Assembly: GCF_003334305.1 (NCBI RefSeq)
Contig: NZ_QOWS01000017.1
DNA length: 64,000 nucleotides
From: Escherichia coli
GTDB taxonomy: Bacteria > Pseudomonadota > Gammaproteobacteria > Enterobacterales > Enterobacteriaceae
Direction: 5' to 3' (one strand)
Shown: positions 23,283 to 61,382 of the stretch, piece after piece
Layout: each line of letters begins with the position of its first letter
How positions within the stretch are numbered: the stretch's first letter is position 1
Program-made: the position numbers and the translations under genes
The notes under the pieces: model-generated
What the model was told of the DNA's origin: nothing
Databases searched by the model: none
What the model saw: the letters and a program-made list of their open reading frames with translations, nothing else

Positions 23283-23358
23283 GCCGATATAGCTCAGTTG
23301 GTAGAGCAGCGCATTCGTAATGCGAAGGTCGTAGGTTCGACTCCTATTATCGGCACCA
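23283..23358 (+). tRNA. thrW: tRNA-Thr (anticodon CGU)
   Basis: 76-nt cloverleaf sequence GCCGATATAGCTCAGTTGGTAGAGCAGCGCATTCGTAATGCG...CACCA; anticodon loop tTCGTAAt. Confidence 0.9.
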
Positions 23359-23360
23359 TC
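23341..23360. repeat. att core, copy 1 (3' end of thrW): ctcctattatcggcaccatc
   Basis: Exact 20-bp repeat also at 35186-35205; 19/20 copy at 47261-47280. Confidence 0.8.
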
Positions 23361-23522
23361 CCCACTTCTTCAAACGTCCGTATTTGTCCGTAACCATACT
23401 GTTTTATAAAAGATTTTTTGTTCTTGTTGTCCGTATTAGTCCATAACCTTCCAGTAGAATCCAGTACTAAATGTGTATAGGATTATGTATATGTTCCTGT
23501 TCGACTTTGGAATTCTATACAC

Positions 23523-24692
23523 ATGCCCCTAAATGATATGCAGATTCGTCGTGCTAAACCTGAAGCTAAAGCCTATACACTTGGGGATGGGCAAGGGCTG
23601 TCTTTACTTGTAGAGCCAAATGGAAGTAAAAGCTGGCGATTTCGTTATCGCTATGCAGGTAAACCTAAAATGATCTCGCTTGGTGTCTATCCAACGATCA
23701 CACTTGCTGAAGCTCGTTCCCGTCGTGATGAGGCCCGAAAAATAGTGGCTGAGGGAAAAAACCCTAGTGAGGTACGAAAAGAACAAAAACTAGCATTAAG
23801 AATTCAATCTGAGAATGCATTCGAAAAGATTGCTAGAGAGTGGCATCGGATGAAGTCGTTAAAATGGTCTGCTGGGTACGCCTCGGATATTATGGAAGCG
23901 TTCCAGAATGATATTTTTCCGTATGTGGGAACGAGGCCTATAGGAGAAATTAAACCGCTAGAGCTGTTAAATGTACTGCGTAAAATTGAGAAGCGTGGCG
24001 CATTGGAGAAAATGCGAAAAGTACGGCAACGTTGCTCAGAAGTTTTTCGATATGCCATTGCTACCGGAAGAGCAGAGTTTAATCCTGCCGCAGATCTATC
24101 CAGTGCTCTCGAAGTACATAAATCAAATCATTTTCCATTCTTAAAATCAGATGAGATACCTGATTTTCTGCGTGCTTTAGATCGCTATACAGGGAGTCAA
24201 CTTGTCGTTATTGCTACGAAGTTATTGATGATCACGGGAGTAAGAACCATCGAATTACGTACCGCATTATGGTCAGAATTTGATTTGGATAACGCTATTT
24301 GGGAAATTCCTGCTGAAAGAATGAAAATGCGCAGGTCACATCTTGTTCCATTGTCGACTCAAGCGTTAGATTTACTTAATGAACTCAAGATAATGACAGG
24401 GAACTATCGTTATGTTTTTCCGGGGCGGAACGACCCGAACAAGCCTATGAGTGAGGCGAGTATAAATCAGGTTATCAAAAGGATTGGTTATGGCGGAAAA
24501 CTTACTGGACACGGATTTAGGCATATGATGTCTACATTGTTGCATGAACAAGGGTTTGATTCATTTTGGATTGAGATTCAATTAGCCCATGTAGATAAAA
24601 ATAGTATTCGTGGAACTTATAATCATGCGCTGTATTTAGAAAAGCGAAGAGATATGCTTCAGTGGTACTCTTCTTTTATAATGGAGCACTAA
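23523..24692 (+). CDS. int: P4-type tyrosine integrase
   Basis: 389-aa ORF directly 3' of the tRNA; P4-integrase-like N-terminus and C-terminal R/H-x-x-R/Y catalytic signature (…GHGFRHMMST…). Confidence 0.9.
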   Translation: MPLNDMQIRRAKPEAKAYTLGDGQGLSLLVEPNGSKSWRFRYRYAGKPKMISLGVYPTITLAEARSRRDEARKIVAEGKNPSEVRKEQKLALRIQSENAFEKIAREWHRMKSLKWSAGYASDIMEAFQNDIFPYVGTRPIGEIKPLELLNVLRKIEKRGALEKMRKVRQRCSEVFRYAIATGRAEFNPAADLSSALEVHKSNHFPFLKSDEIPDFLRALDRYTGSQLVVIATKLLMITGVRTIELRTALWSEFDLDNAIWEIPAERMKMRRSHLVPLSTQALDLLNELKIMTGNYRYVFPGRNDPNKPMSEASINQVIKRIGYGGKLTGHGFRHMMSTLLHEQGFDSFWIEIQLAHVDKNSIRGTYNHALYLEKRRDMLQWYSSFIMEH

Positions 24693-24693
24693 A

Positions 24694-26397
24694 ATGTATA
24701 TTGATAATGTGTATTTAAAAGGATTTAGGAACTATTCTGATAGTTTTGTAAAATTTAATTATTCAACTCTTATAATTGGTGGTAATGATGTTGGTAAGAC
24801 CAACTTATTGTATTCATTAAGGATTTTGTTGGATAAAAGCTTTTCGGATTTAGATTTAGAACCTAAAAATAGCGATTTTCATATTGATGCGAAAGGAAAT
24901 CAGTGTGAAGAGTTAGAAATAATAATTAATTTTCGTGAAGTAAAAGAGGATGCTGTTCTCTCTAAGTTAGCGGGGTATGTTAGTGATGATGCACAAACAT
25001 ACATCAAATATAAAGCATACAGAGCTACTCTTGATTACAAGTTATATATAGGCCACAAAGAATCTGAAATGGATGAGATTAGTGGCAGATTTTATCTTAA
25101 ATATTTAAATTTACGCTATGTGAATTCACAGCGAGACCTTGCTAAATATATATCTACAGAGAAAAAACATTTACTTCGGCTTGCTCAGGAAATGAGAAAC
25201 GAGGAGCAAGTGCGGAAGGATGAAAATACTTTGAATGAATTAACTAATTTATTAAATGATGTCAATGATAAGGTAAAAGAAATAAGCTACGTCTCGACCG
25301 CTACGGAAGAATTGAATGATGAGTTAAAGAAATTATCATATAACAATGAAAAGATTTCTGTAATGCTCGATTCTGGAGCAATTGGTGTTGATCAGTTTAT
25401 TGAAAAATTAGAGTTAAGTTCAAATACAAATGGAAAAAAGGTAATGCTTGGAGGGGACGGATTTAATAACCAAGTATTACTTGCATTATGGAAAGCCAAG
25501 AGTGTACGCGAGCACGATACTGAAAATGAAGTGGTTATATATTGTGTTGAAGAACCTGAATCACATCTTTATCCGCACCAACAGAGAAAATTATCTGAGT
25601 ATTTAATTAGTAAATTGCCGGGGCAGTCTCTAGTAACTACGCATTCTCCGCAAATTGCCATTAATTACTCACCAGATTCAATAATTAAAATTTGCTCTTA
25701 TAACGGTGAGTCTTACGCAGCAAGTGAAGGGTGTTCAGATTGCATAAGTAATGCCTGGAGTGGAATGGGATACAGGATGAGTATACTTCCTGCAGAGGCA
25801 TTCTTCGCTAATGTCGTATTCTTGGTCGAAGGGCCTTCTGAAATGTTATTTTATCAGGCCCTTGCAAAAGAGTGCCAAATTGATCTGGATTTCTTTAATA
25901 TAAGTATATTATCAGTTGATGGCGTTCAATTTGAAGTTTATAGAAAAATTCTTGATGCACTTGAGATTAAATGGGTTGCTCGTACAGATAATGATTCGTC
26001 TAAAGTTCCAAGGAAAAAAGAGTGGCAATATTCAGGTTTAAATCGAGCTTTGGCTCTATGTGGAATGGAGCCACTAAAGAATGAATTAACGGAAATATCT
26101 CAAGCTCAAAGAATAGAGAAACACAAAATTTATAAAGATAAGCTTAAACATCATAATATATTTGTTTCAATTAATGATCTCGAGGGTGATATTGGCGTTG
26201 AGTTAAGTACACAGCTGAAAGAATATGTAGGTGTTGATAATGAGGAAATTGCTGCTGATTATTTAAGAGGAAAGAAAGCAATAAGGATGCAAGAGTTCTT
26301 AGGTGAATACTCTTATGCACTGAAAAATATTTCAGACGGTGAATTAATTCAACCCCTTTTAACTGCTGTAAAATTGGCTACGGAAGAGTTGAGATGA
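24694..26397 (+). CDS. gajA: Gabija GajA-like protein: OLD-family ABC-ATPase plus TOPRIM nuclease
   Basis: 567 aa; N-terminal P-loop GGNDVGKTNLLYSL; ABC-like …VIYCVEEPESHLYPHQQRKL…; C-terminal TOPRIM-like …VVFLVEGPSEMLFYQ… and …ARTDNDSSK…. Confidence 0.75.
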   Translation: MYIDNVYLKGFRNYSDSFVKFNYSTLIIGGNDVGKTNLLYSLRILLDKSFSDLDLEPKNSDFHIDAKGNQCEELEIIINFREVKEDAVLSKLAGYVSDDAQTYIKYKAYRATLDYKLYIGHKESEMDEISGRFYLKYLNLRYVNSQRDLAKYISTEKKHLLRLAQEMRNEEQVRKDENTLNELTNLLNDVNDKVKEISYVSTATEELNDELKKLSYNNEKISVMLDSGAIGVDQFIEKLELSSNTNGKKVMLGGDGFNNQVLLALWKAKSVREHDTENEVVIYCVEEPESHLYPHQQRKLSEYLISKLPGQSLVTTHSPQIAINYSPDSIIKICSYNGESYAASEGCSDCISNAWSGMGYRMSILPAEAFFANVVFLVEGPSEMLFYQALAKECQIDLDFFNISILSVDGVQFEVYRKILDALEIKWVARTDNDSSKVPRKKEWQYSGLNRALALCGMEPLKNELTEISQAQRIEKHKIYKDKLKHHNIFVSINDLEGDIGVELSTQLKEYVGVDNEEIAADYLRGKKAIRMQEFLGEYSYALKNISDGELIQPLLTAVKLATEELR

Positions 26398-28016
26398 TAG
26401 ATTTTACCCATGAGCAAAAAGCAGCAATAGATTACCCATCTAGTATGGTATTGACGGCTTGTCCTGGAAGTGGGAAAACAGCAGTAATCGTAGAGAAGAT
26501 TGTCCGTGACTTGGTGGAATGCAAGGAATATCAGGGTGTTATTGCCATATCGTATACTAACAAAGCAAGCGATGAACTGAAAAAGAGATGTTTAAAGGCT
26601 ACTCCAAATTCAAAATCAAGCTTTTTTGGGACAATAGATAAATTTTATTTGACTGAAGTTATTTTACCATTCATTAAGCAATTATGGGGAAGAGTTGATG
26701 ACTTACATGTAGTTAAGCTTAATGAGTTAGCTTCTTCTGAAAAAGATAGGCTTTCTGCTTTTTTTAATGTCGAATTCATTTGTGAAAAAATTAATGAGTA
26801 TGATTTTAAGGATATAAAGGAACTATACGCCAATGGTATTCTAATACTGGAGTTTATACCATTGCTTGCATTTTATATATTGCGTAACTCGTTAGCATGT
26901 CGCCGATATATCGCTAAAAAATACACATCTATATATATTGATGAGTATCAAGATGCTGGATGTGTTCAGCATCTTCTTTTTCTTTATCTTTTCGAACTTG
27001 GAGTAAAAGCGGTTGCAGTTGGTGATGCTGACCAATCCATATATTCATATGCGGGTAAAAGTTCGAAATACTTAATGTCTTTACTGGATGAAAAAAGTGG
27101 CTTTGCCCCTTTTAAAATAACTATAAATCATCGTTCTCATTCATCTATAGTTAATTATGCTTCTCGATTGTTGAATGAAAACTGTGACTTGTTAATAACA
27201 GATGAAATTCGTGTCTACAGAAAAACTGTTAATGGTACTCAATGTGAAATAGCTAAGTGGATTGATGCTAATATTAACAATATTAAACGAAAGTTCAATA
27301 TTTCAAAAGAAAAAGAGATAGCGATACTTACTGCAACGAATAGTTCTGTCGCTTTAGTATCCGGCCTTATAAACTCCAAAGCAAGAGCATATCTTGATGA
27401 TGAGCTGTCTGTACTCGGTGGAGATGTGTCTCTCTTATTAAAGAACCTTTTGAATTATCGATTTAATAAAACGATTACAGCACAGGCTATCATTGAAAGT
27501 TTAAATTACAAGGTGCTAGAGAGGAATGCAATAAGAAAGATGAGGGGGGTTATTAGAGATGTGAGAGATTCTAATGACAACCAACTTATTCCTGATTTAC
27601 GTAAGGCAGTAAAATTATTAATCAACGCTGATATTTCTGCTAACCATATTGATGCCATTAACTCAATCTTACACAATAAAATGATGCTAAATAATTATTT
27701 ACCAGTTAGTGATGATGAGTTACAAATAATGACTTTACATAAAGCAAAAGGACTAGAGTTCGACTTTGTTTTTCATTTGGATCTTTATGATTGGATATTA
27801 CCGCGAAGGGAATATATAAAACATTGTTTTGATGAGGTTTTTTCACATTATGAGCAATGTCTGAATCTTCATTATGTTGGAGTTACTAGGGCCAAAAAAG
27901 CCGTGGTATTAATAAATTCTACTGAGCGTTTAAATTATCAGAGTGAATTAAAAAAAGCGAAACCATCTCAGTTCTTGTCACTAAAAGGACTTGAAAGTCT
28001 GTATAAAAAAATTTAA
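26394..28016 (+). CDS. gajB: Gabija GajB-like protein: UvrD/Rep-like SF1 helicase
   Basis: 540 aa; helicase motifs I CPGSGKT, Ia ISYTNKAS, II IDEYQDAG, V/VI …TLHKAKGLEFDFVFHL…; start overlaps the gajA stop. Confidence 0.75.
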   Translation: MIDFTHEQKAAIDYPSSMVLTACPGSGKTAVIVEKIVRDLVECKEYQGVIAISYTNKASDELKKRCLKATPNSKSSFFGTIDKFYLTEVILPFIKQLWGRVDDLHVVKLNELASSEKDRLSAFFNVEFICEKINEYDFKDIKELYANGILILEFIPLLAFYILRNSLACRRYIAKKYTSIYIDEYQDAGCVQHLLFLYLFELGVKAVAVGDADQSIYSYAGKSSKYLMSLLDEKSGFAPFKITINHRSHSSIVNYASRLLNENCDLLITDEIRVYRKTVNGTQCEIAKWIDANINNIKRKFNISKEKEIAILTATNSSVALVSGLINSKARAYLDDELSVLGGDVSLLLKNLLNYRFNKTITAQAIIESLNYKVLERNAIRKMRGVIRDVRDSNDNQLIPDLRKAVKLLINADISANHIDAINSILHNKMMLNNYLPVSDDELQIMTLHKAKGLEFDFVFHLDLYDWILPRREYIKHCFDEVFSHYEQCLNLHYVGVTRAKKAVVLINSTERLNYQSELKKAKPSQFLSLKGLESLYKKI

Positions 28017-28036
28017 TTACGTATCTTGGCGCGCAG

Positions 28037-28055
28037 TGCTCTCCCCGCCTCGCCC
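28037..28055 (-). other. P2/P4-type cos site (19-nt cohesive-end sequence)
   Basis: Reverse complement ggcgaggcggggagagcac differs at one position from the P2/P4 cos sequence as I recall it (GGCGAGGCGGGGAAAGCAC). Confidence 0.6.
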
Positions 28056-28219
28056 GCCCGCTTTGCGGGGCGGTTTTAATGCAGTTGCACTGACACGCTC
28101 AGACCGCGCCGGGAATGGCGCGGTCTGCAGAAAATGAGTCAGGAAAACGCATGCAAAGCCATGCACCTTATCGATGCATGGCTTTTTTCAGTAAAAACAG
28201 GCGGATTTTTCGGGGAGTT

Positions 28220-28792
28220 TTACACAGACTGACGTGATGCCAGTTCTGCACTTTTACGCGAAAAAATCATGTTCTGCGCAGGGGTGAATTTTTCACGGCT
28301 GTCATCCACCGAAGCCGCGTCAGGCCTGAATCCGATGGTCGTTAAAATGTCGCTATCCTGTGCGGAATAATTAATTTTTTCCCCCTTCGCAAGCCAGGAC
28401 AGAAGGGCTTCACGCAGGGCATCTGTGGCACGCTGTATGGCACAGTTTCGGGCAATGGCCGTCAGCTCACTGTAGCCCATCAGCTCCGGTGCCAGTGCGG
28501 CCGCCAGTGCTGTGCCGTGCTGCTGCATAAAATCATTCAGCCGCTCGCGGATGCTGATGTGCTGAACGGCTTCATGCGAACGAACATAACGACCGGCGGC
28601 CTGATTCACCTGCCATTTTCTGACTTCGATAATATTGCGTAATTCGTCCAGGCGACTGACGTTTCTGCCTTCCCCGGACAGAAGCCGCAGATATTCCTGT
28701 TCGGCTGCCGCCAGTTCATTTTTGCGCTGAAGCCATGCCGCTTTGTTATTCTGGCAGACCTCAAAAGCCTGCTGTAATGACATTGTGGTCAC
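28220..28792 (-). CDS. psu: P4 Psu (polarity suppression / capsid decoration protein)
   Basis: 190-aa ORF; …LQQAF..CQNNKAAWLQRKNELAAAEQEYLRLL… matches P4 Psu as I recall it. Confidence 0.85.
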   Translation of the reverse strand: MTTMSLQQAFEVCQNNKAAWLQRKNELAAAEQEYLRLLSGEGRNVSRLDELRNIIEVRKWQVNQAAGRYVRSHEAVQHISIRERLNDFMQQHGTALAAALAPELMGYSELTAIARNCAIQRATDALREALLSWLAKGEKINYSAQDSDILTTIGFRPDAASVDDSREKFTPAQNMIFSRKSAELASRQSV

Positions 28793-28806
28793 ACCCCGTC
28801 TCCTGA

Positions 28807-29052
28807 TTAATGGTTGAATGGTGAGCTGTAACAGCCTTTAACTTTTCGGACAACAGCCGGTGCTGTGCTTGCCGGTGCTGGTTTTTCCTCCGTGACCGGA
28901 GAACGAATCACGGCACAAATTGACTCATGCGTTTTAAATGTCGCCGAACAGTAAATATTCTGGCACTGCAGATAACTTTCTTTGACATTGTCACTCACAT
29001 ACCGGCTGGTGCGGGTATGCGCTGAATGACGACAGAAAGGGCAGCGCATCAT
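28807..29052 (-). CDS. Ogr/Delta-family zinc-finger late-gene activator
   Basis: 81-aa ORF with C-x2-C…C-x4-C pattern (MMRCPFCRHSAHTRTSRY…CQNIYCSATF) like P2 Ogr / P4 Delta. Confidence 0.85.
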   Translation of the reverse strand: MMRCPFCRHSAHTRTSRYVSDNVKESYLQCQNIYCSATFKTHESICAVIRSPVTEEKPAPASTAPAVVRKVKGCYSSPFNH

Positions 29053-29783
29053 GACAGCAGTCCTCTGGCCTTAAGCACTGCTCCCTGCTGGTCTATTTTG
29101 TCCTGCCACACCTTGCGCTGTGCCGGTGTGCCTGCCACCTCATAATCCATGTGCGGGAGTGTTGCCGCTGACAGTCCGGTCAGCCGGAGAACCGGCTCGC
29201 CGGTGAGGCTGATTTGCATCTGTTTTATTTTCTGTTCCAGCGATGATTTCACCTGCTGCATGACAGCTTTATCGGGTGCGACGTAGCCCTGATGGCCGGT
29301 GGTGTTGGCGAGCGGATTTTCCTGTACCAGGATACTCAGATGCATTGCCCGGACAAGCGCCTCACAGGTTTCATTCAGGGCGTGTTCCAGCTCATGCTCT
29401 GCATACAGACTCAGAAGGTGATGATGTGCCTTCCGGTAGGCGGTGGCCGTGCTGTCACACGCCCCTTTCAGGCGTTCACGTTCAAAATTCAGCACCACGG
29501 CCAGATTGTCATATTCCTGTACCAGCTCCCGGCGTGCCACGCGCTCAATGTGGCGCTGTTTCAGCTCATCGCTCAGGACACCACCGGCTGCACGAAAGGC
29601 CGTGCGCCAGTCGTCAGCGTCGTTTCCGTCGGCCTGCGCCAGCGCATTTTTTTCCTGCTCTGCCCGTTCAATGGCCGTAACGGTCTCATCCATCAGGCGG
29701 GCGTTCTCAAGATGGGCGGCTCTGGACTTTTCCAGTTGTGCCAGTGCGGGTTGCAGATATTCAGGGATAGTGTGGTCAGACAT
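29049..29783 (-). CDS. sid: P4 Sid (capsid size-determination external scaffold)
   Basis: ORF 29049-29849; start placed at MSDHTIPEYL... (244 aa); coiled-coil-rich. Confidence 0.8.
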   Translation of the reverse strand: MSDHTIPEYLQPALAQLEKSRAAHLENARLMDETVTAIERAEQEKNALAQADGNDADDWRTAFRAAGGVLSDELKQRHIERVARRELVQEYDNLAVVLNFERERLKGACDSTATAYRKAHHHLLSLYAEHELEHALNETCEALVRAMHLSILVQENPLANTTGHQGYVAPDKAVMQQVKSSLEQKIKQMQISLTGEPVLRLTGLSAATLPHMDYEVAGTPAQRKVWQDKIDQQGAVLKARGLLS

Positions 29784-29817
29784 TTTCCGGCTCCTCGTCA
29801 CTTCAGGTTGAGAAAAT

Positions 29818-29873
29818 TGTGACGTACACCGGACAACAACACGACGCATTGCAGATGTGCCAGCCCTGACACA
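29818..29873. promoter_or_regulatory. two TGT-N12-ACA Ogr/Delta-type activator sites in the divergent late-promoter region upstream of sid
   Basis: TGTgacgtacaccggACA (29818-29835) and TGTgccagccctgacACA (29856-29873). Confidence 0.55.
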
Positions 29874-29951
29874 GGAGACTCATCCTCAGACCGGCAAGCC
29901 AGGAAAAGGTCGCAGGAAAAACCGGCTTACTGTTTGTTTTTTTATATTTTA

Positions 29952-30057
29952 CTGTTCACCTCTGTTCACCATAAGAAAAAAGATAAGTAATACAGTAAGT
30001 TAAAGGGTGAACAATCGCAGTAATGACTGTTCACCGTCTGTTCACCACTGTTCACCC
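29952..30057. repeat. P4 ori-like iteron cluster (TGTTCACC repeats, both orientations)
   Basis: At least six copies of tgttcacc or its complement within about 110 bp. Confidence 0.7.
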
Positions 30058-30335
30058 GTTGATGGGCTTTTTGTGCTGTTTATTACTGTTTGTTTTTATT
30101 AATTCGCCGGGAATGAATAAGAAAAAACGATTTGTATTTCACTATAAAAATTACGAATTGCTTTAAGTGGCTTTAAATGACTTTAAGTGGAGATGAACAA
30201 AAAACACACAAGCATTGTAAGGCTGCCGGAACAAATCCCCCCTGTTGCGTCTGCTGAAAATATTCACAAAATAAAACGCTACCCGAAGCCGGACGGACTT
30301 ATCCGGTGCTGTATGGACATTAACGAGGTAGCCCG

Positions 30336-30602
30336 ATGCAAGCTGTTTTTTCTTCCCCGTCTCCTGCCCCTGTGACGCCACTGATGCCGCTGCCGGACAT
30401 CACACAGGAGCGTTTTTTACGTCTGCCGGAAGTGATGCACCTGTGCGGCCTGTCACGCTCGACCATCTATGAACTTATCCGTAAGGGGGAATTTCCGCCG
30501 CAGGTGAGTCTTGGCGGTAAAAATGTGGCCTGGCTGCACTCTGAAGTCACCGCATGGATGGCCGGGCGCATTGCCGGACGCAAACGGGGGTACGACGCAT
30601 GA
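30336..30602 (+). CDS. AlpA/Vis-family small DNA-binding regulator
   Basis: 88-aa ORF; …[34 protein letters not shown]… is the AlpA-type HTH. Confidence 0.65.
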
Positions 30603-30991
30603 TGATGCCCGCTCTGCAAAAAGTCCCTTTTTCTGGCTTGCCTTTTTCCGGCATTTGCGGATATAGTTTTTCCGTTGCCGCAAAATCGGCAGCCGGGCGT
30701 GAGAACCCGTGTAACTCGAAGGCGACATATGACGCGCCATGCGTCTTTTTTTGTGTCGCAATCAACGCCACAGAGCGCCAGATTATGGTGTGGCGTGTGG
30801 TTTGCCGTGCAGGTATGATCCTGTTCGCAATCGCATGTTATGCCACTGAGTCAATGGTAGCTCAGGCGGGGCAGCCTCCGGGCTGGCCGGTATTCTTCGA
30901 GGCCGGTATTCTCACCCCCGTCTGGGCTATCGCCATCGAGCGTGAGAACTCCGGCGATAGCAGTTATTTGCTACTCGAAGGAGGCTGCCTT

Positions 30992-31189
30992 ATGGCTACA
31001 ACCCTTACCCCCTCACACCCTGAATTTGTCTTTGTGTTTGCGGCTGTCCGTCGCGCAGACCGTCATCCCCGTATCTGCATGCTTCGCACCGTCGCCGGTG
31101 ATGAACGCAGCGCCCGCCGTTCCCTTGTCCGTGACTATGTGCTCTCCCTTGCTGCCCGTCTGCCGGTGGTGGAGGTGTCCCGTGCGTAA
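30992..31189 (+). CDS. small hypothetical protein of the satellite early operon
   Basis: 65 codons from an ATG with a strong upstream aaggagg RBS, inside the longer ORF 30554-31189. Confidence 0.35.
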
Positions 31190-38974: not shown

Positions 38975-39718
38975 ATGTCTAAAATTAAATTGATTCGTGA
39001 AAAATACCAGTATGTTGATAAACAAACAGGAGAAATTAAAGACCGAACTTTGAATATACCGCATTACTTTTGTGAGATTGAATTTATCTACTCCTCAAGT
39101 GTTGATGGTGGAAAAGTTAAGTTTAGTGCAGAAATGCAAAAATTATATTGCTATGTTTCAGATTGGGAGAAATCAGGGGGGATATGTTTTGAAACACAAA
39201 CGAAGTTAAGTAAAGTTTGTGGCTGTAGCCGTAAGACAGTTAATGAACTGATTGGTCTTATGATTAAAATCGGTCTTTTAGAAGAGGTCGGAGAACGAAT
39301 TCCAAAACGTCCTTTAAAATTACGTGCGCTACCTCTCACAGATGCACATATTACTCCCCCAGGAGAATCATCACTCTCTGATCTTTCTGAGGCAGAAGAA
39401 GCACAGGAACAACCTAAAGGCCATAAACAGCCTTCTTTTGATGTTCTTGATGATTGGGATGCGCCTTTACCGTGGGAGACGGAAGAAACACCTGTTTCAT
39501 CAAGTGAAAAGGTAGCTAATGATAATGAGGAGGATGTATTAGAGAATTTTGCCTCTCTTATCATCCAGGAGAAACACACAAGAACAGGAGGAGCATCATT
39601 TATTGAGTTTGCAAATTCACTAGCTTATAGATACGGGCTAAAACGACCAAATGGTATTGAGGCATATTTTTCTAAGAATTACCCAAATGTATATGATGAA
39701 TTTGATATTCCCTTTTAA
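38975..39718 (+). CDS. helix-turn-helix protein with acidic C-terminal half (candidate replication initiator or regulator)
   Basis: ORF 38918-39718; start placed at the ATG after an aaggag RBS; winged-helix-like segment …TQTKLSKVCGCSRKTVNELIGLMIKIGLLEE…. Confidence 0.5.
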   Translation: MSKIKLIREKYQYVDKQTGEIKDRTLNIPHYFCEIEFIYSSSVDGGKVKFSAEMQKLYCYVSDWEKSGGICFETQTKLSKVCGCSRKTVNELIGLMIKIGLLEEVGERIPKRPLKLRALPLTDAHITPPGESSLSDLSEAEEAQEQPKGHKQPSFDVLDDWDAPLPWETEETPVSSSEKVANDNEEDVLENFASLIIQEKHTRTGGASFIEFANSLAYRYGLKRPNGIEAYFSKNYPNVYDEFDIPF

Positions 39719-40141
39719 TAAGGAGGACTATGATTCAATATTTAGTAAAAAAATCAAGTAGACAGAATTCAGTGTAATGACACAGGAAAACGCATCTACG
39801 AAACACTTGCTTACCTCTATAAAGGAAAGCCAACACCGCTAAAATATAGCGATGTGTTACATCGAGCAGGGTGCTCTGAAGCTGGTTTAAAATTCTGGCT
39901 GAAACAGCTATCAAATTTCGGTGTTATTGAAATGAAAGAGCTGTCTTTTTCTACATTCAATCTCAAAAGATTAGATAAAGAAATAGAATTCATCTATTCC
40001 ACTCTCTAAAATCTCTCTATGTAATTAAAATATAAAAGGAAAACATTATTATGATAGTAGCTATGTATTGGTTATTGTTCTTTCTCACGTTAGAAGCATA
40101 CTTTGGGGTGTTTTCCTTTAAAAGAAAAGGAAAAGTAAATA

Positions 40142-40558
40142 ATGGCAAAAAGAAAAAACAACGTTGTTAAGAAAATCGGTGATTCAGCTTCTCTTCTAAG
40201 TAAACCTAAACCTAAATCTATTCTAAGACGTAAAGACTTTAAAGAGCTAGTTACGCTCACCAAGCAAAATAGCGCCCCTGGCGAATGGAAAACAGAGATC
40301 ATAGAACATTCTCCCTCTGTGCCTTGTGGAGATGAATTTAACGCCTTGCAAGAAATCTTATCTTCAACACCTGGCGTATTCTGGAAACCTAGAAAAAGAA
40401 AAGAGTATATCGTTGATAGCTCTGATTTACGCAAATACCAGATTTTAGGATTTGAAGATTATAACCACTACGTCGGTTATCTCGCCACCAATGGCCTAAA
40501 TAATTTAGTTCCTGAATTCCAAATTTTAGATAATGCTGATCACTATGGAGACTTTTAA
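40142..40558 (+). CDS. hypothetical protein with basic N-terminus
   Basis: 138-aa ORF. Confidence 0.45.
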   Translation: MAKRKNNVVKKIGDSASLLSKPKPKSILRRKDFKELVTLTKQNSAPGEWKTEIIEHSPSVPCGDEFNALQEILSSTPGVFWKPRKRKEYIVDSSDLRKYQILGFEDYNHYVGYLATNGLNNLVPEFQILDNADHYGDF

Positions 40559-40559
40559 T

Positions 40560-40898
40560 ATGAACAAAAACACGTATGACACAATTTATTCACTAATTAA
40601 TTATTATGAGGATGATTACCTCCTGCCTTTAAACCGCGCTGAACTTGAAGCATACAAAGAAAACACGCCAGGGGCGCTAAATGAGGCGTTTAAACACTGG
40701 GATTTAGCTGTGAATGCCTTTGAGCACCTTTCTAAAAGAGTAGAGATGCTCTGTAAGCGTGAAAACGCATACCTGACAGCCGATCAGATATGGGAGCTAT
40801 CAAACTGGATAGAAGATATTGAATCTGATGTTCGCTATGTAGGGGATGGCCTGGTTGAATTAGCTCAACGCTTAGGCGCTACTATCACAGAAGAATAA
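40560..40898 (+). CDS. hypothetical protein
   Basis: 112 aa from an ATG overlapping the upstream stop (taATG). Confidence 0.45.
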   Translation: MNKNTYDTIYSLINYYEDDYLLPLNRAELEAYKENTPGALNEAFKHWDLAVNAFEHLSKRVEMLCKRENAYLTADQIWELSNWIEDIESDVRYVGDGLVELAQRLGATITEE

Positions 40899-40927
40899 AA
40901 AAAGCAACAAAAAAGTTGTAAAATATC

Positions 40928-40959
40928 TTGACATTCCATCTATTGTATGTTAATATAAT
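40928..40959 (+). promoter_or_regulatory. strong sigma70-like promoter (TTGACA, 17-bp spacer, TAATAT)
   Basis: Read directly from sequence; followed by about 290 nt of structured leader before the 41248 ORF. Confidence 0.5.
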
Positions 40960-41247
40960 TATATAGGGGTGATTATTTTTCCTTTATTGGTTCGATATTA
41001 AAAATTCTTCCTGTCATTAAAGGGGAGTAAAATCTCCGCTCCCCGCTTCTCCTCCTTAAGTAAATACTGTGTCATTATACCTCTTTTTTCCTTTGTTATG
41101 CATACATCTTGGAGTATGCATAACATAGGGTAATTACATAGGTATGAGTTAATAAAAGGCGGCTCTAAATGCTGCCTTTTATTTTGCCCGTTATGCAACT
41201 TAAAAGTTGTATTTCTTACTTTAAAAAAGGTAACAAGGTTTATATAA

Positions 41248-41460
41248 ATGTTGTTTTTAAACGATAAAGAGCAAATCATCAAGTATAAAGATGAAATGCT
41301 GAAAATTAATCCACAAATTACCGAAATGGTAGCTAAATACGCTGGGTGTTCTGTCGAGGAAGTAGAAAGATGTGTTGAAAAATATTTTTCTCCTTCTACT
41401 CCGTCTACACCTTCCCTTAATGAATTAATCAAATTAAAAGCTAAGGAGATTACTAAATGA
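41248..41460 (+). CDS. hypothetical small protein
   Basis: 70-aa ORF; stop overlaps the next start. Confidence 0.4.
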   Translation: MLFLNDKEQIIKYKDEMLKINPQITEMVAKYAGCSVEEVERCVEKYFSPSTPSTPSLNELIKLKAKEITK

Positions 41461-41819
41461 TTATTGATTTAGACACTCTGTTTCCAGTTAGAAAGACTTT
41501 CACAGATATTGTAAGTTATTGTACTGATCCGTTTGCCTCTGTAGAAAGCAAGGTTTTTGCTTCTCTTCCTGCTGATGTTGAGTGCGGCGACTTGATCACC
41601 AGTACTGGCGCTAAATATGAATCAGGAGATGATATCTATGTTGTTATGAGTGAATTTGTAACGGCTGGAGAAAACAAGCCTGTAGATGTGCTACGTAGTA
41701 ATGCTGGTCTTGTCTGCATCAAAGCTGATGCGCTGAATGCTGTAAGTGAAGCAGCAAAAACAGCATTAATTAAAAAAGGCTTCCAGCTTGAAGGGTTCCA
41801 TTCTGTTTTCACTTCTTAA
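41457..41819 (+). CDS. hypothetical protein upstream of the capsid-like gene (possible decoration or scaffold-like)
   Basis: 120-aa ORF, translationally coupled; functional guess from position only. Confidence 0.45.
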   Translation: MIIDLDTLFPVRKTFTDIVSYCTDPFASVESKVFASLPADVECGDLITSTGAKYESGDDIYVVMSEFVTAGENKPVDVLRSNAGLVCIKADALNAVSEAAKTALIKKGFQLEGFHSVFTS

Positions 41820-41837
41820 TAAAAGGAATAATAATAA

Positions 41838-42869
41838 ATGATTCTAGGTAATGATTACGTTGATTTAGCTCCGCTTTTCCAGGCACACAGCACTAGAAAC
41901 TTTCTGCTCTCTACCCTCGACTTCACTGATCCGGTGGGCGTTAGTTCTCATAAAGTAGCTGTTTCTCAGCTTGTCGAAAGCAACGAATCTCTGTTCAACA
42001 AAGAAACCTCTCGTTTCTCTTCTGAACACAATGTTACTAAGCGTGAACAAGGTAAAGAATGGCTGATTGAAATCCCGTATTTTCTTCGTGAAGATGTGAT
42101 CCGTCCTTCTGATGTTCAAGGCAAGCGTAAGCCTGGCACTGATTTTCAGGAAACACTCACTGATATCTATGCGGAATATATCGCTAAACACCACGTAGCG
42201 TATCAGCGTACAAAAGAGAGCGTGTTGGCTGCATCTCTGTTTAGCGGTAAAACTTACACGCCTAAAACTGATGATGTTCTTATCGAGTGGGGCAAGCTGT
42301 TTAACGTGGCACCTATGAAAGCCACCTTGAACGCTTCCAGCACTGACACAATGACCGTTTTCAAGCAATTTGACCAGCTTGCTACGGATATGATTGCTAA
42401 GGCACAAAACCAGGCTGCAACCATTGAGCGTGTTGTTGTGTTCTGTAAACCTGCGGCATTCAACGCTATTCGTTACAGTGTTGGTATGGTCAATGCTTTC
42501 CAATATGCAAGCCCTGTAGACGATGCCAACGTGGTGTTTAATGTGCGTTCCCTGCTACCAGGTGTAACTACTTTCACCATTCCAGGAACTAACATTGACC
42601 TGATCAAAGTGACTGATCCGCTACACCTTGCACATATGGCTTCTGATGCGGTTGCTGTGCCTAAATTCGCTAAGGGGGCAGGTGTTTACCAATCTATCTA
42701 TGGGGCAGCTTCCAGCACCTTTGAACTGATCAATGCCGCTCCTGCTGAGGTGTATAGCTATAGCTATGAATCTTCTTCTCGTGGTGATGCTGTTAACGTT
42801 GTTACAGAGAATAGCCAGATGGTGGTAAACCACGGCGTTGGTTTCTCCGTTCAAATCACTGTTAAATAA
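41838..42869 (+). CDS. phage major capsid protein candidate (lambda gpE-like family)
   Basis: 343-aa ORF (lambda E is about 341 aa); several segments, including the C-terminal …GFSVQITVK, resemble my recollection of lambda E; not verified by search. Confidence 0.5.
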   Translation: MILGNDYVDLAPLFQAHSTRNFLLSTLDFTDPVGVSSHKVAVSQLVESNESLFNKETSRFSSEHNVTKREQGKEWLIEIPYFLREDVIRPSDVQGKRKPGTDFQETLTDIYAEYIAKHHVAYQRTKESVLAASLFSGKTYTPKTDDVLIEWGKLFNVAPMKATLNASSTDTMTVFKQFDQLATDMIAKAQNQAATIERVVVFCKPAAFNAIRYSVGMVNAFQYASPVDDANVVFNVRSLLPGVTTFTIPGTNIDLIKVTDPLHLAHMASDAVAVPKFAKGAGVYQSIYGAASSTFELINAAPAEVYSYSYESSSRGDAVNVVTENSQMVVNHGVGFSVQITVK

Positions 42870-42955
42870 TATTTTAACGTGTAATAGAGGCGTGGCGTGA
42901 ATAACACGCTTCGCCTTTTTTTATTTATTTTTAAATTTTGAGAGGTGATTAAAAT

Positions 42956-43159
42956 ATGGAAGTGATTCTGAAATCAAAAAATGGTGTACACGTTTATTTA
43001 GATGCTAATGATTCAAGAGGCTTGTTAAATCTGAAATATCTATGTTCTCTCTTGGATGTTCCATATGAAGGCGTAAAAGCCCGAATGTTCAGATTAAACG
43101 AGAGTATTGATCAAGCTCTACACCATTTCTTAAGCAAAGAAGGTGGTAAAAATGATTAA
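42956..43159 (+). CDS. hypothetical small protein
   Basis: 67-aa ORF. Confidence 0.35.
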   Translation: MEVILKSKNGVHVYLDANDSRGLLNLKYLCSLLDVPYEGVKARMFRLNESIDQALHHFLSKEGGKND

Positions 43160-43173
43160 TAAGGGGATTTTAA

Positions 43174-45012
43174 ATGTTAGAAATTAACACTTCTAAAATT
43201 AAGAACACAGTAACATTTAGTGTAGATAAAGACAGCTTGAAAAAAGCGAAAGACTCTATTACAGGCTTAAAGGAATTCACAGAAAACATCAAGCCAGCTA
43301 AATTAAGGTTTGATAGTGTCACTAAAGGCTATAAGAAAGCACAAAGCGAAGTAGACAAGATTGCTCAACAGAAAGCTAAAACAGAAAAGCAGAATCAAAG
43401 AGCACAAGCTGCCGCAGCAAGAGCACAGGCAAGGCAACAGACACAAATAGCAGCACGTAAAGAGAAAGCAGAATTAAAGCTCCTCGATGTGTCAAGCTCT
43501 ATCAGTGCAATGCACCGCCTCTCTGTAGCGGAACAATACAAAGCTATTGCACAGGCTAGAGAGATAGCAAAACAATATGAGCAAGGGGCTATCTCGCTTG
43601 CACGTATGAATAGTCAGATGAAACGCCTACAACAGCAACAACGTAAGATTAATGGCAACAGAAAAGCTCAATTAGCCCCCGTTAAGGGAGGAGGATCAGG
43701 GAATTCCGCCACGATGGGTGCTCTGTTATTTGGAGGCGCTACAGCGGCTGCTGGCGTGATGGCTGTTAGTAAAGCGTCGGAGTTTGTTAGTAACAGTTTC
43801 GCTAACGCAGAGACACAAGGTGAGCTAATTCAACGTGCAAGGCTTGGCGGTGTAGACGTTAACCAGATGTACAACATTACAGAATGGGCCTATAGAAACG
43901 GCGTTGACTCTATGATGGGTGATCAAGGGGCTAGGAAATACCTGGATCAGATGAAAGATGTTAGGGAACGTGCCGCAAAATCCTATAGTGAAGCTGAATA
44001 TGTAGTCGATAAAAAAACTGGTAAAGGCGGCGAATGGAAAGGCGGTGATAACGCTATTAATGAACTTCTAAACATCGGTGTTATTAACAAGAGCGACCTT
44101 AAAAAATTTGCTGATAATCCAGCCGGATTAATTTCTAAGGCTGTTAATGGAATGATGAAAAAAGGGTTTTCAGACTCCCAAATTGGACAACGTTTAGAAG
44201 ACCTGGGTGATGATTTGATGCTTACATCAAAATATTGGCAACGTTCCGTTAAAGATGTACAAACAAGCATCGAGCAGCAAAAAGCCTCTGGAAAATGGCT
44301 AACAGAAACACAGCAAGATTCTATTGTTAAATTCAGAGAACTAAACAGACAGCTTTCACAGCTTTCTGATGCAAGACAAGTAGCATTTGTAGACGGCTTT
44401 ATGAAATCTCTCGATCCAAAAGTAACGGAAGAGTTTATGAAAAACCTTTCTAATCTCACTCCGTATTTTACAAAGCTGGGAGAAGCTACAGGAAGTCTCT
44501 TTGAAGCTATTATGAAGATTGTAAACTGGTTTAATCGTAATGATGATAAGACAGATGCTATTCAGAAAAATTTAGGTGATGCACCGCCATTAAGCAATGA
44601 AGGAATGAAACAGAATCTTTCTAATCTCGTTCCTGATCAATATAAAGGCGCTGGCACCGGAACAACTAAGCCAGATAACAGCAATTCCCTGTTTAACACT
44701 ATTAAGGGATTGCTTTTCGATGATAAGTCTTCTTCTGTGTCAGATGTAAAAATGTCAGTCAGCGAAGCACCGATAACCAATCTCAAACAGGGCGCTTTAA
44801 ATAATCTTGCAATGACAACTCCGGCTTATAATTTATCTCCTGTGTTTAATCTGAATCCTACATTTGAAGTGGTAACAGAGGTTCCTCTTACTATTAATTC
44901 TGACACATCAAGATTAAGCGATTATGTGGATTTTACAGCGAGATCAAGTCGGGATAGCTTCTTGAAATCATTAACATTAACCAGCTTATCAGGACAATCT
45001 AACGGCGGGTAA
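43174..45012 (+). CDS. large coiled-coil protein with a Gly/Ala-rich hydrophobic segment (tape-measure-, pilot- or ejection-like)
   Basis: 612 aa; K/Q/A-rich predicted coiled coil in the N-terminal 170 aa; GGGSGNSATMGALLFGGATAAAGVMAV segment. Confidence 0.55.
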   Translation: MLEINTSKIKNTVTFSVDKDSLKKAKDSITGLKEFTENIKPAKLRFDSVTKGYKKAQSEVDKIAQQKAKTEKQNQRAQAAAARAQARQQTQIAARKEKAELKLLDVSSSISAMHRLSVAEQYKAIAQAREIAKQYEQGAISLARMNSQMKRLQQQQRKINGNRKAQLAPVKGGGSGNSATMGALLFGGATAAAGVMAVSKASEFVSNSFANAETQGELIQRARLGGVDVNQMYNITEWAYRNGVDSMMGDQGARKYLDQMKDVRERAAKSYSEAEYVVDKKTGKGGEWKGGDNAINELLNIGVINKSDLKKFADNPAGLISKAVNGMMKKGFSDSQIGQRLEDLGDDLMLTSKYWQRSVKDVQTSIEQQKASGKWLTETQQDSIVKFRELNRQLSQLSDARQVAFVDGFMKSLDPKVTEEFMKNLSNLTPYFTKLGEATGSLFEAIMKIVNWFNRNDDKTDAIQKNLGDAPPLSNEGMKQNLSNLVPDQYKGAGTGTTKPDNSNSLFNTIKGLLFDDKSSSVSDVKMSVSEAPITNLKQGALNNLAMTTPAYNLSPVFNLNPTFEVVTEVPLTINSDTSRLSDYVDFTARSSRDSFLKSLTLTSLSGQSNGG

Positions 45013-45046
45013 TTCCCGCCATAACATTACAAGGAAAATTATTATT

Positions 45047-45760
45047 ATGGCGACCGCCGGGATTTTAACCATACGTGCAGCAAATACTCCAGAACAACAC
45101 GTTCAGGCTGTTTACAAAGCAGAACAAGATATAAATTCTACAAAAAACGAAAATAGCAAAGCTAATAAAACAAAAGGAGAGAACGGATTTGCTATTGTTA
45201 CCAGTGGCTTGGCATCTTCTGGCAATGACGTTTATGAAAATTATATGGCCCTGGCCTTTGACAGTGTAGACGATGTGAACGTGAGACGTTCGGCAGATGT
45301 CACAAGCTACCCCGTAGAAAATGGTGCTACTGTGTCTGATCACGTTCAAATTAAAAACAATAAGTTTTCTCTTAAAGGAAGGATCACTGAAACACCGATT
45401 AAAAGCGATCCTGGCTTGTTAAAGAGTGCAGGGGTGAACGGGAACAGAAGATCATTAGCCATAGACTACTTGAATCAGATTATGGACAGTAGACAGCCTT
45501 TTCTTCTTGTTACAGAAAATAAAACTTTTGAGAACGTTGTTTTAACAGGCATCGAATACACAGAAGAGGCAAGCGAATCCCTGGTATTTGATCTTAGCTT
45601 TGAGCAGATCAGATTAGTTTCTTATGGCACTGTATCCACTATTGCACTTAAAACACAACCATCTAAGAACATCGGGGCGAATATGAAAAAACGTGTTAAC
45701 ACTGAAAAATCAAGTAGTGAAGGTGAAGACACTATTACTCCTGCCTTTAAGCAGAAATAG
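45047..45760 (+). CDS. hypothetical protein (possible virion structural protein)
   Basis: 237-aa ORF. Confidence 0.5.
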   Translation: MATAGILTIRAANTPEQHVQAVYKAEQDINSTKNENSKANKTKGENGFAIVTSGLASSGNDVYENYMALAFDSVDDVNVRRSADVTSYPVENGATVSDHVQIKNNKFSLKGRITETPIKSDPGLLKSAGVNGNRRSLAIDYLNQIMDSRQPFLLVTENKTFENVVLTGIEYTEEASESLVFDLSFEQIRLVSYGTVSTIALKTQPSKNIGANMKKRVNTEKSSSEGEDTITPAFKQK

Positions 45761-45801
45761 CCGTAAACGCCTCTAAAACGCTCTGTAACGATGTAATTAT
45801 A

Positions 45802-45838
45802 AAAGAGGCTGCCAATCTATGTTGAAGCCTCTTTATTG
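45802..45838. terminator. bidirectional intrinsic terminator between the structural-like genes and the convergent integrase
   Basis: Stem aaagaggct / agcctcttt with flanking A/T runs. Confidence 0.55.
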
Positions 45839-45841
45839 TGT

Positions 45842-47206
45842 TTATGGCGTTGTTTTACGCCTTAAATTTGATTTTTTATTGATTGATAAGCCTTTCTCTA
45901 TTTCAGGGTAGCGTAGAAGCTCAATATAGTTTTTAAGCTCTACTGGAGAAGCTGCATTCTTGCTATATGTGCGGAATGTCTCTGTATTGCCGCGTGTATG
46001 GCCCAGGAGAAGGGCGATCCTGTCTTCTGGAATTTGATTTCGATCAAGAAGCTGTGCTACTCCGTGTCTCAGAGAATGAAACACTTTCCTTTCTGTTCCC
46101 TTTTCCCCTAAAGCCTTTCGTTTAGCTCTTGTAAATCTCTGCGTGTGCCACGTGGAACGTTTACCATCAGCACGCTCTGTAATGCTGGCGTGATAGAACA
46201 AAAAGCCATTATGAGGCTTTTCACGCAGCGACAACACCAACGGAGTGATAAGGCTATGTACAGGCACAACACGTGCCGCAGCTTTCGTTTTTCCCTGTGT
46301 GATTTCAAAACACAGCACACCTTCGATCTCTTTCACATCGTCTATTGTGAGACTTGCTATCTCATTGATCCGCATACCTGTATATAAACCGATAAGACAC
46401 AAAGCCATCATTTCTTTGTTTTCTGCTGAATTACCGGAAAATACTTGCAACACCTGCAATAGCTCTTTGTTAGAAAATGCCTCGTAGCTCTCTCTACTTT
46501 GTGCCACATCAAGCCTATGCCCTCGCCAGGGGGAGAGCGCCCTTTCTGGCGCATCGTGGTAACGTGATGAAGCTAACTCCCATAGCTGGGCTATTGGGCT
46601 GATATAATTTGCAATTGATTGTTGTGAAAGAGTTTTTTGCATGTGTTCTATCCAGCCTGTAACAGTGGTGCGGCTCACATCTTGCAATGCAATATCAGGC
46701 TTTTTACGGTAGGAGAGAAACATCTCTACCGCTTTTCTTGCCTTAGCTAAAGTGGCTGGCTTCTTCTTCGTGCTGTTAATTGTCAGGTAGATTTCAAGAA
46801 TTTTAAGCAATGACGGACACGAAGACGCTGTATCTTGCATTCTGGTAGCTGTTTTGGCGTATTTAGCCTTACTGCGTAACAGCTCCAGCGTGTTCTCTAT
46901 TGTGCTGTTTACAGGGGCGACACTCTCCCGTAGGCAATGGTATTCATCTGCAATCTGATCACGCTTTCTACGTGCAACACGAAGATTATTTGTGTGTAGA
47001 CTTCTGACAAACGTCCTTTTTCCTTCAAAAAAGGGCTGCATATACACAGGCAGCGTGATCCTTAAATAGTAGTTACCGTAAGAATCACAGATTAAGTATT
47101 GGTTAGGCTTGTATCTCATAAAATCTCCGGCTAAAGTGTCGGAGCGTTTGTAATGTGAAAATTGATTGTAACGCATAGAAAATGATAATTTTTCTATAAG
47201 ATTCAA
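45842..47206 (-). CDS. tyrosine integrase (intF-position integrase)
   Basis: 454-aa ORF; catalytic signature …GMRINE…HSLRHG…GHTRGNTETFRTYSK; sits beside the degenerate att copy. Confidence 0.85.
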   Translation of the reverse strand: MNLIEKLSFSMRYNQFSHYKRSDTLAGDFMRYKPNQYLICDSYGNYYLRITLPVYMQPFFEGKRTFVRSLHTNNLRVARRKRDQIADEYHCLRESVAPVNSTIENTLELLRSKAKYAKTATRMQDTASSCPSLLKILEIYLTINSTKKKPATLAKARKAVEMFLSYRKKPDIALQDVSRTTVTGWIEHMQKTLSQQSIANYISPIAQLWELASSRYHDAPERALSPWRGHRLDVAQSRESYEAFSNKELLQVLQVFSGNSAENKEMMALCLIGLYTGMRINEIASLTIDDVKEIEGVLCFEITQGKTKAAARVVPVHSLITPLVLSLREKPHNGFLFYHASITERADGKRSTWHTQRFTRAKRKALGEKGTERKVFHSLRHGVAQLLDRNQIPEDRIALLLGHTRGNTETFRTYSKNAASPVELKNYIELLRYPEIEKGLSINKKSNLRRKTTP

Positions 47207-47260
47207 TCAATTAGTAATGGTCGTAGGTGATGGCATTAACACGAGATTAATCGAGTGTTT

Positions 47261-47280
47261 TACTCCTATTATCGCACCAT
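47261..47280. repeat. att core, copy 3 (degenerate, 19/20): actcctattatcgcaccatt
   Basis: One-base deletion relative to copies 1 and 2. Confidence 0.6.

Positions 47281-60770: not shown

Positions 60771-61382
<612 letters not shown>

Follow-up and report, generated by a model that had tools for sequence, protein, structure and literature searches.

The thrW–yagP interval and its attachment cores

The stretch of Escherichia coli DNA analysed here, a 64,000-nt window of contig NZ_QOWS01000017.1 to which all coordinates below refer, carries a block of about 24 kb that begins at the 3' end of thrW, the single tRNA gene reported by ARAGORN (tRNA-Thr(CGT), 23283–23358). The block is flanked by proA and thrW on the left and by a truncated yagP followed by paoD on the right, which is the position of the cryptic prophage CP4-6 in strain K-12, in agreement with the placement given in the initial annotation of the window. 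Its two halves, here called element 1 (E1) and element 2 (E2), each carry a tyrosine integrase gene next to an outer end of the block (table 1). E1 has the gene content of a P4-like phage satellite, and E2 encodes, besides its integrase, a putative replication initiator and homologues of a few structural proteins of large virulent phages.

The halves are delimited by three copies of a short attachment (att) core. The 20-mer CTCCTATTATCGGCACCATC, already recognized in the initial annotation, occurs exactly twice in the window (23341–23360 and 35186–35205), and a repeat search extends the identity by one base leftward to the 21-nt sequence ACTCCTATTATCGGCACCATC (23340–23360 and 35185–35205). Because the tRNA ends at 23358, this repeat consists of the last 19 nt of thrW and 2 nt past the CCA. 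No match to the 20-mer, even with up to three mismatches, was found in 100 dinucleotide-preserving shuffles. The third copy, ACTCCTATTATCG-CACCAT, lacks one G, as had been noted before, and its next base is T, not C; it spans 47262–47280, so its start had been placed one base too far to the left. The yagP gene next to it is an N-terminally truncated pseudogene both in the window and in K-12, and it is full-length in the O157:H7 strain Sakai; judging from these comparisons, the chromosomal flank of the thrW hotspot is eroded in some lineages. Outside the block, other stretches of low G+C content (0.36–0.44) lie at 61001–64000 and 7001–8000.

Table 1. Features of the thrW–yagP interval, ordered by position in the window.
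Feature	Position	Strand	Evidence
thrW, tRNA-Thr(CGT), intact with CCA end, chromosomal attB	23283..23358	+	ARAGORN; Rfam tRNA 71.8 bits; PGAP
attL core, tRNA 3' end + TC, GG form	23340..23360	+	repeat search, att comparison
E1, P4-like phage satellite, 11.8 kb	23361..35184	.	gene content; 99.4% identical element alone at thrW in strain EC-107
E1 tyrosine integrase, 389 aa, directed away from attL	23523..24692	+	phrog_1 1.4e-74; PGAP
GajA, OLD-family ATPase/nuclease, cargo of the P4 int-cos hotspot	24694..26397	+	PADLOC PDLC00066 E 9.7e-254, full length; G+C 33-36%
GajB, UvrD-like helicase	26394..28016	+	PADLOC PDLC00123 E 3.4e-229, full length
Candidate P2/P4-type cos-like site, next to psu	28036..28054	-	18/19 match to P2/P4 cohesive-end sequence
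psu, polarity suppression / capsid decoration	28220..28792	-	phrog_6366 1.4e-98
delta, ogr/Delta zinc-finger late activator	28807..29052	-	phrog_603; PGAP
sid, capsid size determination (PGAP name 'glycoprotein 3')	29049..29849	-	phrog_6165 1.7e-114
Three tandem repeats containing TGTTCACC	30025..30056	+	Tandem Repeats Finder (TRF)
AlpA/Vis-like helix-turn-helix (HTH) regulator/excisionase	30336..30602	+	phrog_2790, phrog_66
icd/kil-like, epsilon (derepression) and orf151 homologues	30599..31917	+	PGAP names; phrog_10748
P4-type RNA immunity region: c4-a1b1 targets, isrK, C4 antisense RNA (30850-30937)	30661..30937	+	Rfam RF03163, RF01394, RF01695
alpha primase-helicase, 777 aa	32388..34721	+	phrog_2249 1.1e-241
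Two 120-nt direct repeats, 180 nt apart	34767..35066	+	repeat search
att core between the right arm of E1 and the left arm of E2, GG form	35185..35205	+	repeat search, att comparison
E2, integrative element of 12 kb, putatively a satellite of phi92-like myoviruses	35206..47261	.	gene content, phage homologies
E2 left-end block, 757 bp; sole annotated gene orf52 (35809-35967)	35206..35962	+	97.5-98.5% identity among E2 subtypes
orf127, E2 variable region	36311..36694	+	list of open reading frames (ORFs); conserved in part of E2 family
40-nt block at the start of orf127, 39 of 40 nt shared with phage PHB05 nt 357-318	36320..36359	+	profile search and exact-match search
Iterons, 55-nt unit x 2.8; 21-nt core TGGATGTAACGA.AGGTTACA x 5; probable origin	37084..37303	+	repeat search, TRF
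Replication initiator-like HTH protein (PGAP start 38975)	38918..39718	+	PHROG initiation/O-like 9e-07 to 5e-03; Pfam HTH_36
Two conserved proteins, 138 aa and about 112-121 aa, no family match	40142..40898	+	family conservation
orf120, probable head decoration protein	41457..41819	+	AlphaFold2 (AF2) model, pLDDT 68; fold matches
Major capsid protein (MCP), 343 aa	41838..42869	+	Pfam Phage_cap_E 4.4e-14; phrog_29; profile vs PHB05 MCP 8.6e-12
Tape-measure-like protein (TMP), 612 aa, Phi92 gp134 homologue	43174..45012	+	phrog_16051 4.4e-54; PDB 21vq_V 2.4e-38; PHB05 TMP 7.9e-87
Dit-like tail tube initiator, 237 aa, Phi92 gp135 homologue	45047..45760	+	Pfam Dit_like 6.9e-29; PDB 21vq_N 3.1e-78
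E2 tyrosine integrase (PGAP start 47119), directed away from attR	45842..47206	-	phrog_1 1.3e-33; unrelated to E1 integrase
attR core, one G deleted, then native chromosomal flank TTAAAATCAAAGAG	47262..47280	+	att comparison
yagP remnant, LysR substrate-binding domain, N-terminus missing, right chromosomal flank	47406..47744	-	PGAP

Two independent units in a tandem array

Whether the internal core is a true junction was judged from its occurrence in other genomes, with 600-bp synthetic junction queries searched against 5,426 complete E. coli genomes and matches counted at a query coverage of at least 80%. The empty site, with thrW joined to position 47280 onward, is present in 948 genomes, in many of them at 100% identity. 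A direct junction of thrW with the left end of E2 occurs in 393 genomes, the top matches being identical over all 600 bp, and the right end of E1 is joined straight to the yagP flank in 147. The E1/E2 junction of the window was found in just two genomes, those of strain A7 from orangutan faeces (NZ_CP028767.1), the strain of the window itself, and of the soil isolate SC467, the latter carrying a second array of the same order with 90% identity at this junction, and the reverse junction, in which the right end of E2 is followed by the left end of a P4-like element, was found in 29. Individual strains illustrate each arrangement: EC-107 (locus L003) carries E1 alone between thrW and yagP, strain 503025 (L027) an E2-type element alone, and Res13-Lact-PEB08-01 (L005) an E2-type element followed by a P4-like one. 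Since both halves thus also occur singly, with the core as their boundary to the chromosome, the internal repeat represents a true junction and the halves are independent of each other.

The integrases of the two elements show no relatedness (BLASTP E = 0.33). The initial annotation had interpreted the block as a tandem of two unrelated elements sharing the thrW core, which predicts thrW–yagP intervals occupied by one element only; both kinds of such intervals exist, as does the empty site, and the interpretation is upheld by the junction census together with the unrelated integrases. Copies of the att core in direct orientation bound the block and mark its internal junction, its units occur separately, and the unoccupied site is known, as in an accreted array. 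We regard the 24-kb block, with a probability of roughly 85%, as two integrative elements lying in tandem, each mobile independently of the other, whose unrelated tyrosine integrases would use the same core of about 20 bp at the 3' end of thrW. That it is instead one composite element with a chance or vestigial internal repeat would fit the rarity of the exact E1/E2 junction, but it can practically be dismissed, given the lack of a second repeat copy in the shuffles and the occurrence of the halves singly at the core and in reverse order.

Larger arrays occur at the same site. Many genomes carry thrW arrays of about 38 kb with three integrases (e.g. NZ_CP163042.1, 3708777–3746715) and additional cargo comprising a TIGR04141 protein, a reverse transcriptase and flotillin; by their gene content, these arrays look like at least three elements each.

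Order of arrival

The base missing from the right-hand core may record the order in which the two elements arrived. The native site reads ...GGTTCG ACTCCTATTATCGGCACCA TTAAAATCAAAGAG..., and in all five E1-only genomes sampled the attR consists of the E1 arm, ACTCCTATTATCG-CACCA, TT and the native flank; other P4-like elements, Sp2 of strain Sakai among them, show the same one-G deletion in their right arms. In E2-only genomes, attL is composed of the tRNA (GG form), TC and AAGAAAATC, and attR of the E2 arm, the GG core, TT and the flank. The window combines the E1 arm, the GG core, TC and the E2 left arm at its internal junction with the E2 arm, the deleted core, TT and the flank at its right junction. 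Recombination between attR(E1, deleted) and attP(E2, GG) would yield exactly these two junctions as its reciprocal products, which argues that E2 arrived second. E1 would have been resident first, with the one-G-deleted core at its distal attR; the E2 integrase would then have recombined attP(E2) with attR(E1) through a crossover inside ACTCCTATTATCG, so that the GG form would have come to lie at the internal junction, with the deleted form staying behind at the right-hand end. From the junction sequences it seems likely that E2 integrated into the distal att site of the resident E1 and not into the tRNA gene. In principle either element could leave the chromosome by itself, and recombination between the outer sites could release both together.

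Two points weigh against this order: the argument presupposes that the P4-like attP brings the deletion and that one integrase cuts to its left and the other to its right, and the array of a P4-like element and E2 in SC467 contains no deleted core copy at all. The opposite order, with E2 resident at thrW, E1 integrating later into the tRNA gene and the deletion at the far right arising by an independent mutation, would accord with the normal preference of P4-like integrases for the tRNA copy. It also has parallels at three other loci (L013, L019 and L021), where a P4-like right arm is followed by the deleted core and then by the E2 left arm, so that this order of arrival does occur elsewhere. 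For the window it is nevertheless unlikely: in the five E1-only genomes sampled the deletion at attR is followed by precisely the flank seen here, the other E2 attR copies sampled all have the GG form, and the two junctions of the window show the exact reciprocity described above. The arrival of E2 after E1 thus remains the preferred scenario.

Element 1 is a P4-like satellite with a Gabija system

E1 is, as far as its genes and sites can tell, an intact and canonical P4-like satellite, and the corresponding label in the initial annotation is well supported by the PHROG and Rfam matches, with a candidate cos site in addition. The P4 markers int, psu, delta, sid, alpA, epsilon and alpha occur together (PHROG E values of 1e-17 to 1e-241), accompanied by orf106/DUF5375, and the P4-type RNA immunity is represented by the CI/C4 RNA with its target sites, all three RNA families scoring above the gathering threshold (74.3 bits for RF01695 and 49.5 bits for RF03163). 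The candidate cos site, at the place expected for it beside psu, agrees with the P2/P4 cohesive-end sequence at 18 of 19 positions, and 2 of 100 shuffles also gave such a match. The repeats containing TGTTCACC lie at the place of the P4 ori and presumably correspond to its type I iterons, and the 120-nt direct repeats, at the place of the P4 crr, are taken by us to be its counterpart.

The adjacent genes for GajA (ATPase-TOPRIM) and GajB (UvrD-like helicase), which overlap by 4 nt, form a low-G+C pair between int and the cos-like site. E1 thus carries a Gabija system in the P4 cargo hotspot, predicted to protect against phages. The full marker set, the C4/CI RNA and defence cargo in the int–cos interval are common to E1 and to P4 and P4-like satellites, and E1 has a candidate for their cos site; P4 integrates at leuX, whereas E1 resides at thrW and carries Gabija, and E1 is otherwise unremarkable. 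The defence cargo hotspot of P4-like satellites has been described before (Rousset et al. 2022, PMC9122126; de Sousa & Rocha), and P4-like satellites are often found in tRNA genes, in tRNA hotspots with defence systems (PMC10121019). P4-like elements at thrW in other genomes have different cargo in the hotspot, namely a reverse transcriptase and a partner protein in Res13-Lact-PEB08-01 (L005, 14046–17588) and a pseudogene of an AAA ATPase in Sakai Sp2 (L007, 14808–19269). In the element of L005, sid is missing and delta is incomplete.

Gene content and distribution of element 2

The leftmost 757 bp of E2 are 97.5–98.5% identical across all E. coli subtypes of the element, compared with just 25–60% identity among the structural proteins. 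No RNA gene was recognized there (35250–35640), with no Rfam match, no stable fold and z-scores of -0.7 and 0.0, and a coding test had too few substitutions to work with; the block may hold attP arm sites or regulatory elements. It also contains one half of a perfect 21-nt inverted repeat (35489–35509), the other half of which lies inside the Dit gene (45634–45654). When compared directly, the counterpart of the Dit site in two relatives (L005 and L014) matches at 16 of the 21 positions, and the other loci yielded no perfect or near-perfect copy. Five clustered substitutions in the Dit gene of the window make the match perfect, which suggests a micro-conversion or a selected antisense pairing.

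Next comes a variable cargo region, occupied by orf127 and orf92 in the window and by a serine recombinase in relatives, and then the iterons, separated from the initiator-like gene by two small ORFs. The sequence around and to the right of the iterons is ORF-free for 1–2 kb (37340–38550 in the window, 845–2666 in L024, 2327–4301 in L026), and such a stretch is kept even in distant members of the family from other genera. Relatives of the initiator-like protein carry DUF6945. Four small conserved proteins are encoded between the initiator-like protein and the MCP. The structural model of one of the small proteins, orf138, was too poor for searching (predicted local distance difference test score, pLDDT, of 54). 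PDB profile searches with orf120 and orf138 came back empty, and the homologues of both are widespread and all annotated as hypothetical. In fold searches orf120 was matched best by head decoration proteins of phages and by small capsid chains from myoviruses, and it is by its modelled fold a probable head decoration protein. A 67-aa protein (orf67) is encoded between the MCP and the TMP. Searches against PHROG, Pfam and NCBIfam detected no terminase, portal, protease, sheath, tube or baseplate protein in E2, and no conjugation or mobilization genes were seen in it by PGAP, PHROG and family scans.

All core ORFs of E2 are intact in the window, and their order is kept in 20 other E2 loci, including those of distant members. 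The E2-type MCP, always 342–345 aa long, occurs at 39–94% identity in multiple genera of Enterobacterales (E. coli, Klebsiella, Citrobacter, Enterobacter, Cronobacter, Dryocola, Serratia and Sodalis). Among the complete E. coli genomes, 227 contain at least 80% of E2, and 779 contain some of it. Across the 20 loci the integrase is about 98% identical, compared with 25–98% for the TMP and Dit, which points to module exchange. The metagenome contigs of 11–12 kb with E2-type loci are plain fragments. From this conservation, E2 is to be seen as a member of a compact family of about 12 kb in Enterobacterales. The core proteins that we looked up are annotated as hypothetical or bear generic names, and no published description of E2-type elements was found in the literature searched, which is not proof of its absence.

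Relationship of element 2 to large virulent phages

The region of E2 encoding the TMP and Dit is about 70% identical at the nucleotide level to phi92-like coliphages (Justusliebigvirus, about 145–150 kb), and the two proteins match the chains named Phi92_gp134 and Phi92_gp135 in PDB entry 21vq. The Dit of the window is 56–61% identical to proteins of Stephanstirmvirinae and about 28% to those of the rV5 type. Two other subtypes of E2, with a Dit 50–60% identical to that of the window, likewise have their best matches in Stephanstirmvirinae (53–64%). An attempt to assign the Dit subtypes to distinct helper genera failed, all three matching the same subfamily at 50–64%.

We also compared profiles of every E2-family protein with the whole assembled genome of phage PHB05 (L032). 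Significant matches were obtained for the MCP, TMP and Dit and for no other E2 protein. The MCPs of E2 and PHB05 are distantly homologous and collinear from the N-terminus. Neither pairwise BLASTP nor profile comparison found anything between orf120 and the PHB05 decoration protein or between orf67 and gp125. One weak match of orf127 (E 2e-4) stems from a 40-nt block at the start of this ORF, TTGCGAGA(A/G)GTGCTTAACGCGATTTTCAGCGCCCCCCGAT, which is shared with a non-coding stretch around the deposited ends of the PHB05 genome and in which the motif CAAATATCA is conserved at the same spacing. An exact 31-mer from it, whose positions include L047 10989–11019 and L042 1097–1127, recurs in a 149,506-bp phage contig, in a 97-kb metagenomic viral contig and in 12 E2-family loci. 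The block could be a shared cis site, serving packaging, a promoter or recombination, or it could reflect homology of a small ORF.

What is element 2?

E2 combines integration and replication functions of its own with an incomplete set of virion and packaging genes, a combination typical of satellites. From the homologies described above, we give somewhat better than even odds to E2 being a satellite that Stephanstirmvirinae-like (phi92-like or phAPEC8-like) phages activate and help to package. Such an element would integrate by means of its own integrase and replicate from an iteron-type origin with its own initiator; the MCP and the decoration-like protein would build a small capsid shell of its own, and the TMP and Dit would provide two parts of the tail core, with the remainder supplied by the phi92-like helper. 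A more specific version of this proposal, which we put forward tentatively and hold to be somewhat less probable than its negation, is that E2 represents an undescribed family of Enterobacterales satellites parasitizing myoviruses of the phi92/phAPEC8 group (Stephanstirmvirinae), with a private shell of MCP and decoration protein, its own TMP and tube initiator, and recognition of the helper through the block at 36320–36359.

Several observations speak against a satellite of this kind. No packaging function and no pac or cos site was identified in E2, and five conserved small proteins of the element have no function assignable by family, profile or structure searches. The MCP is only 19% identical to that of PHB05, and the identification of orf120 as a decoration protein comes from a modelling effort in which one model out of five was good. 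No E2-like sequence of virome origin was found either, all 16 MCP loci in IMG/VR being on contigs with identifiers in the style of isolate genomes.

E2 could alternatively be chiefly an anti-phage island, in which the homologues of capsid protein, TMP and Dit act as decoys that poison the assembly of phi92-like phages and which spreads unpackaged. The TMP and Dit, 30–60% identical to phage proteins, are near enough to co-assemble and far enough to misfit, and their module is swapped between subtypes that share a nearly invariant integrase; interference of islands with tail assembly is moreover documented (PMC11364771). However, an MCP, a decoration-like protein and a dedicated origin are satellite tools for amplification and for making own shells, and with no conjugation or mobilization genes seen, the wide spread of the element would be left without an explanation, so that we consider a decoy function as the chief role of E2 unlikely. 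Phage interference and satellite transfer are mutually compatible.

Another conceivable explanation makes E2 a decaying prophage remnant, immobile and with no life cycle of its own, whose structural genes have been kept by chance. The element does contain a mere subset of virion genes, about 3 kb at its left end are poor in ORFs, the occupant of the same site in K-12 is a cryptic prophage, and the missing virome evidence fits as well. A remnant would, however, hardly be expected to recur across genera as a compact set of genes in the same order with an MCP of nearly constant length, to retain intact core ORFs together with an initiator and iterons, and to show precise att cores with clean presence or absence in hundreds of genomes and in both array orders, and we regard this explanation as improbable. 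The satellite interpretation is thus the one we favour.

Comparison of E2 with the established types of satellites and with other occupants of the site did not assign it to any of them. As a P4-like satellite it lacks detectable psu, delta, sid and alpha. As a classical phage-inducible chromosomal island (PICI) it has int and an initiator, with alpA, a primase and terS/ppi/rpp undetected, and it encodes an MCP. The capsid-forming PICIs (cf-PICIs) are small islands with their own MCP that depend on a helper for other virion parts, as we suppose for E2, but their capsid and packaging module is complete (portal, protease, connectors, small terminase) and tail genes are absent from them, whereas E2 has only the MCP and the decoration-like protein, in addition to the TMP and tube initiator, and the portal, protease, connectors and terS are without a PHROG, Pfam or NCBIfam match in it. 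E2 is not a relative of CP4-6 either, there being no blastn match beyond the att core and its integrase being 24% identical to IntF over 162 aa.

[quoted passage not shown] E2 would likewise depend on a large virulent myovirus and has its own initiator and iterons, but its hosts are Enterobacterales. PLE takes and remodels the coat protein of its helper, whereas E2 brings its own.

Comparison with other arrays and significance

Tandem occupancy of thrW has been documented in the O157:H7 strain Sakai (PMC8190617; PMC9997748), and software for satellite detection is known to have to cope with tandem satellites (PMC10085698). In Sakai, a lambdoid remnant (Sp1) is followed by the P4-like Sp2 in the same interval from proA–thrW to yagP. 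Like E2, CP4-6 carries its integrase gene distally, but neither CP4-6 nor Sp1 shares DNA with E2 beyond the core, the partner element differs, and both of them have a much longer repeat, reaching the anticodon loop. Accretion of integrative and conjugative elements (ICEs) and cis-mobilizable elements (CIMEs) at tRNA genes by successive integration at flanking att sites also yields arrays with three repeats, the units of which can move alone or together. The array described here has this layout too, except that both of its units are phage-related, that unrelated integrases would act on one core and that a polymorphism in the core gives a clue to the order of arrival.

The array as such is routine, another instance of a known phenomenon, and what it adds is the probable insertion order and E2. 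It offers a clean natural case in which one tRNA core serves two recombinases of unrelated origin, and a one-base marker in the core would tell which element arrived second and where it inserted. E2 is, by its gene content, a probable and apparently undescribed family of satellites linked to large virulent coliphages. If it is indeed a satellite of phi92- or phAPEC8-like phages, it would constitute the first satellite–helper system for large virulent coliphages in therapy development, could explain failures or host-range quirks of such therapy phages, and would add a type of satellite with tail-core genes, which are unusual for satellites.

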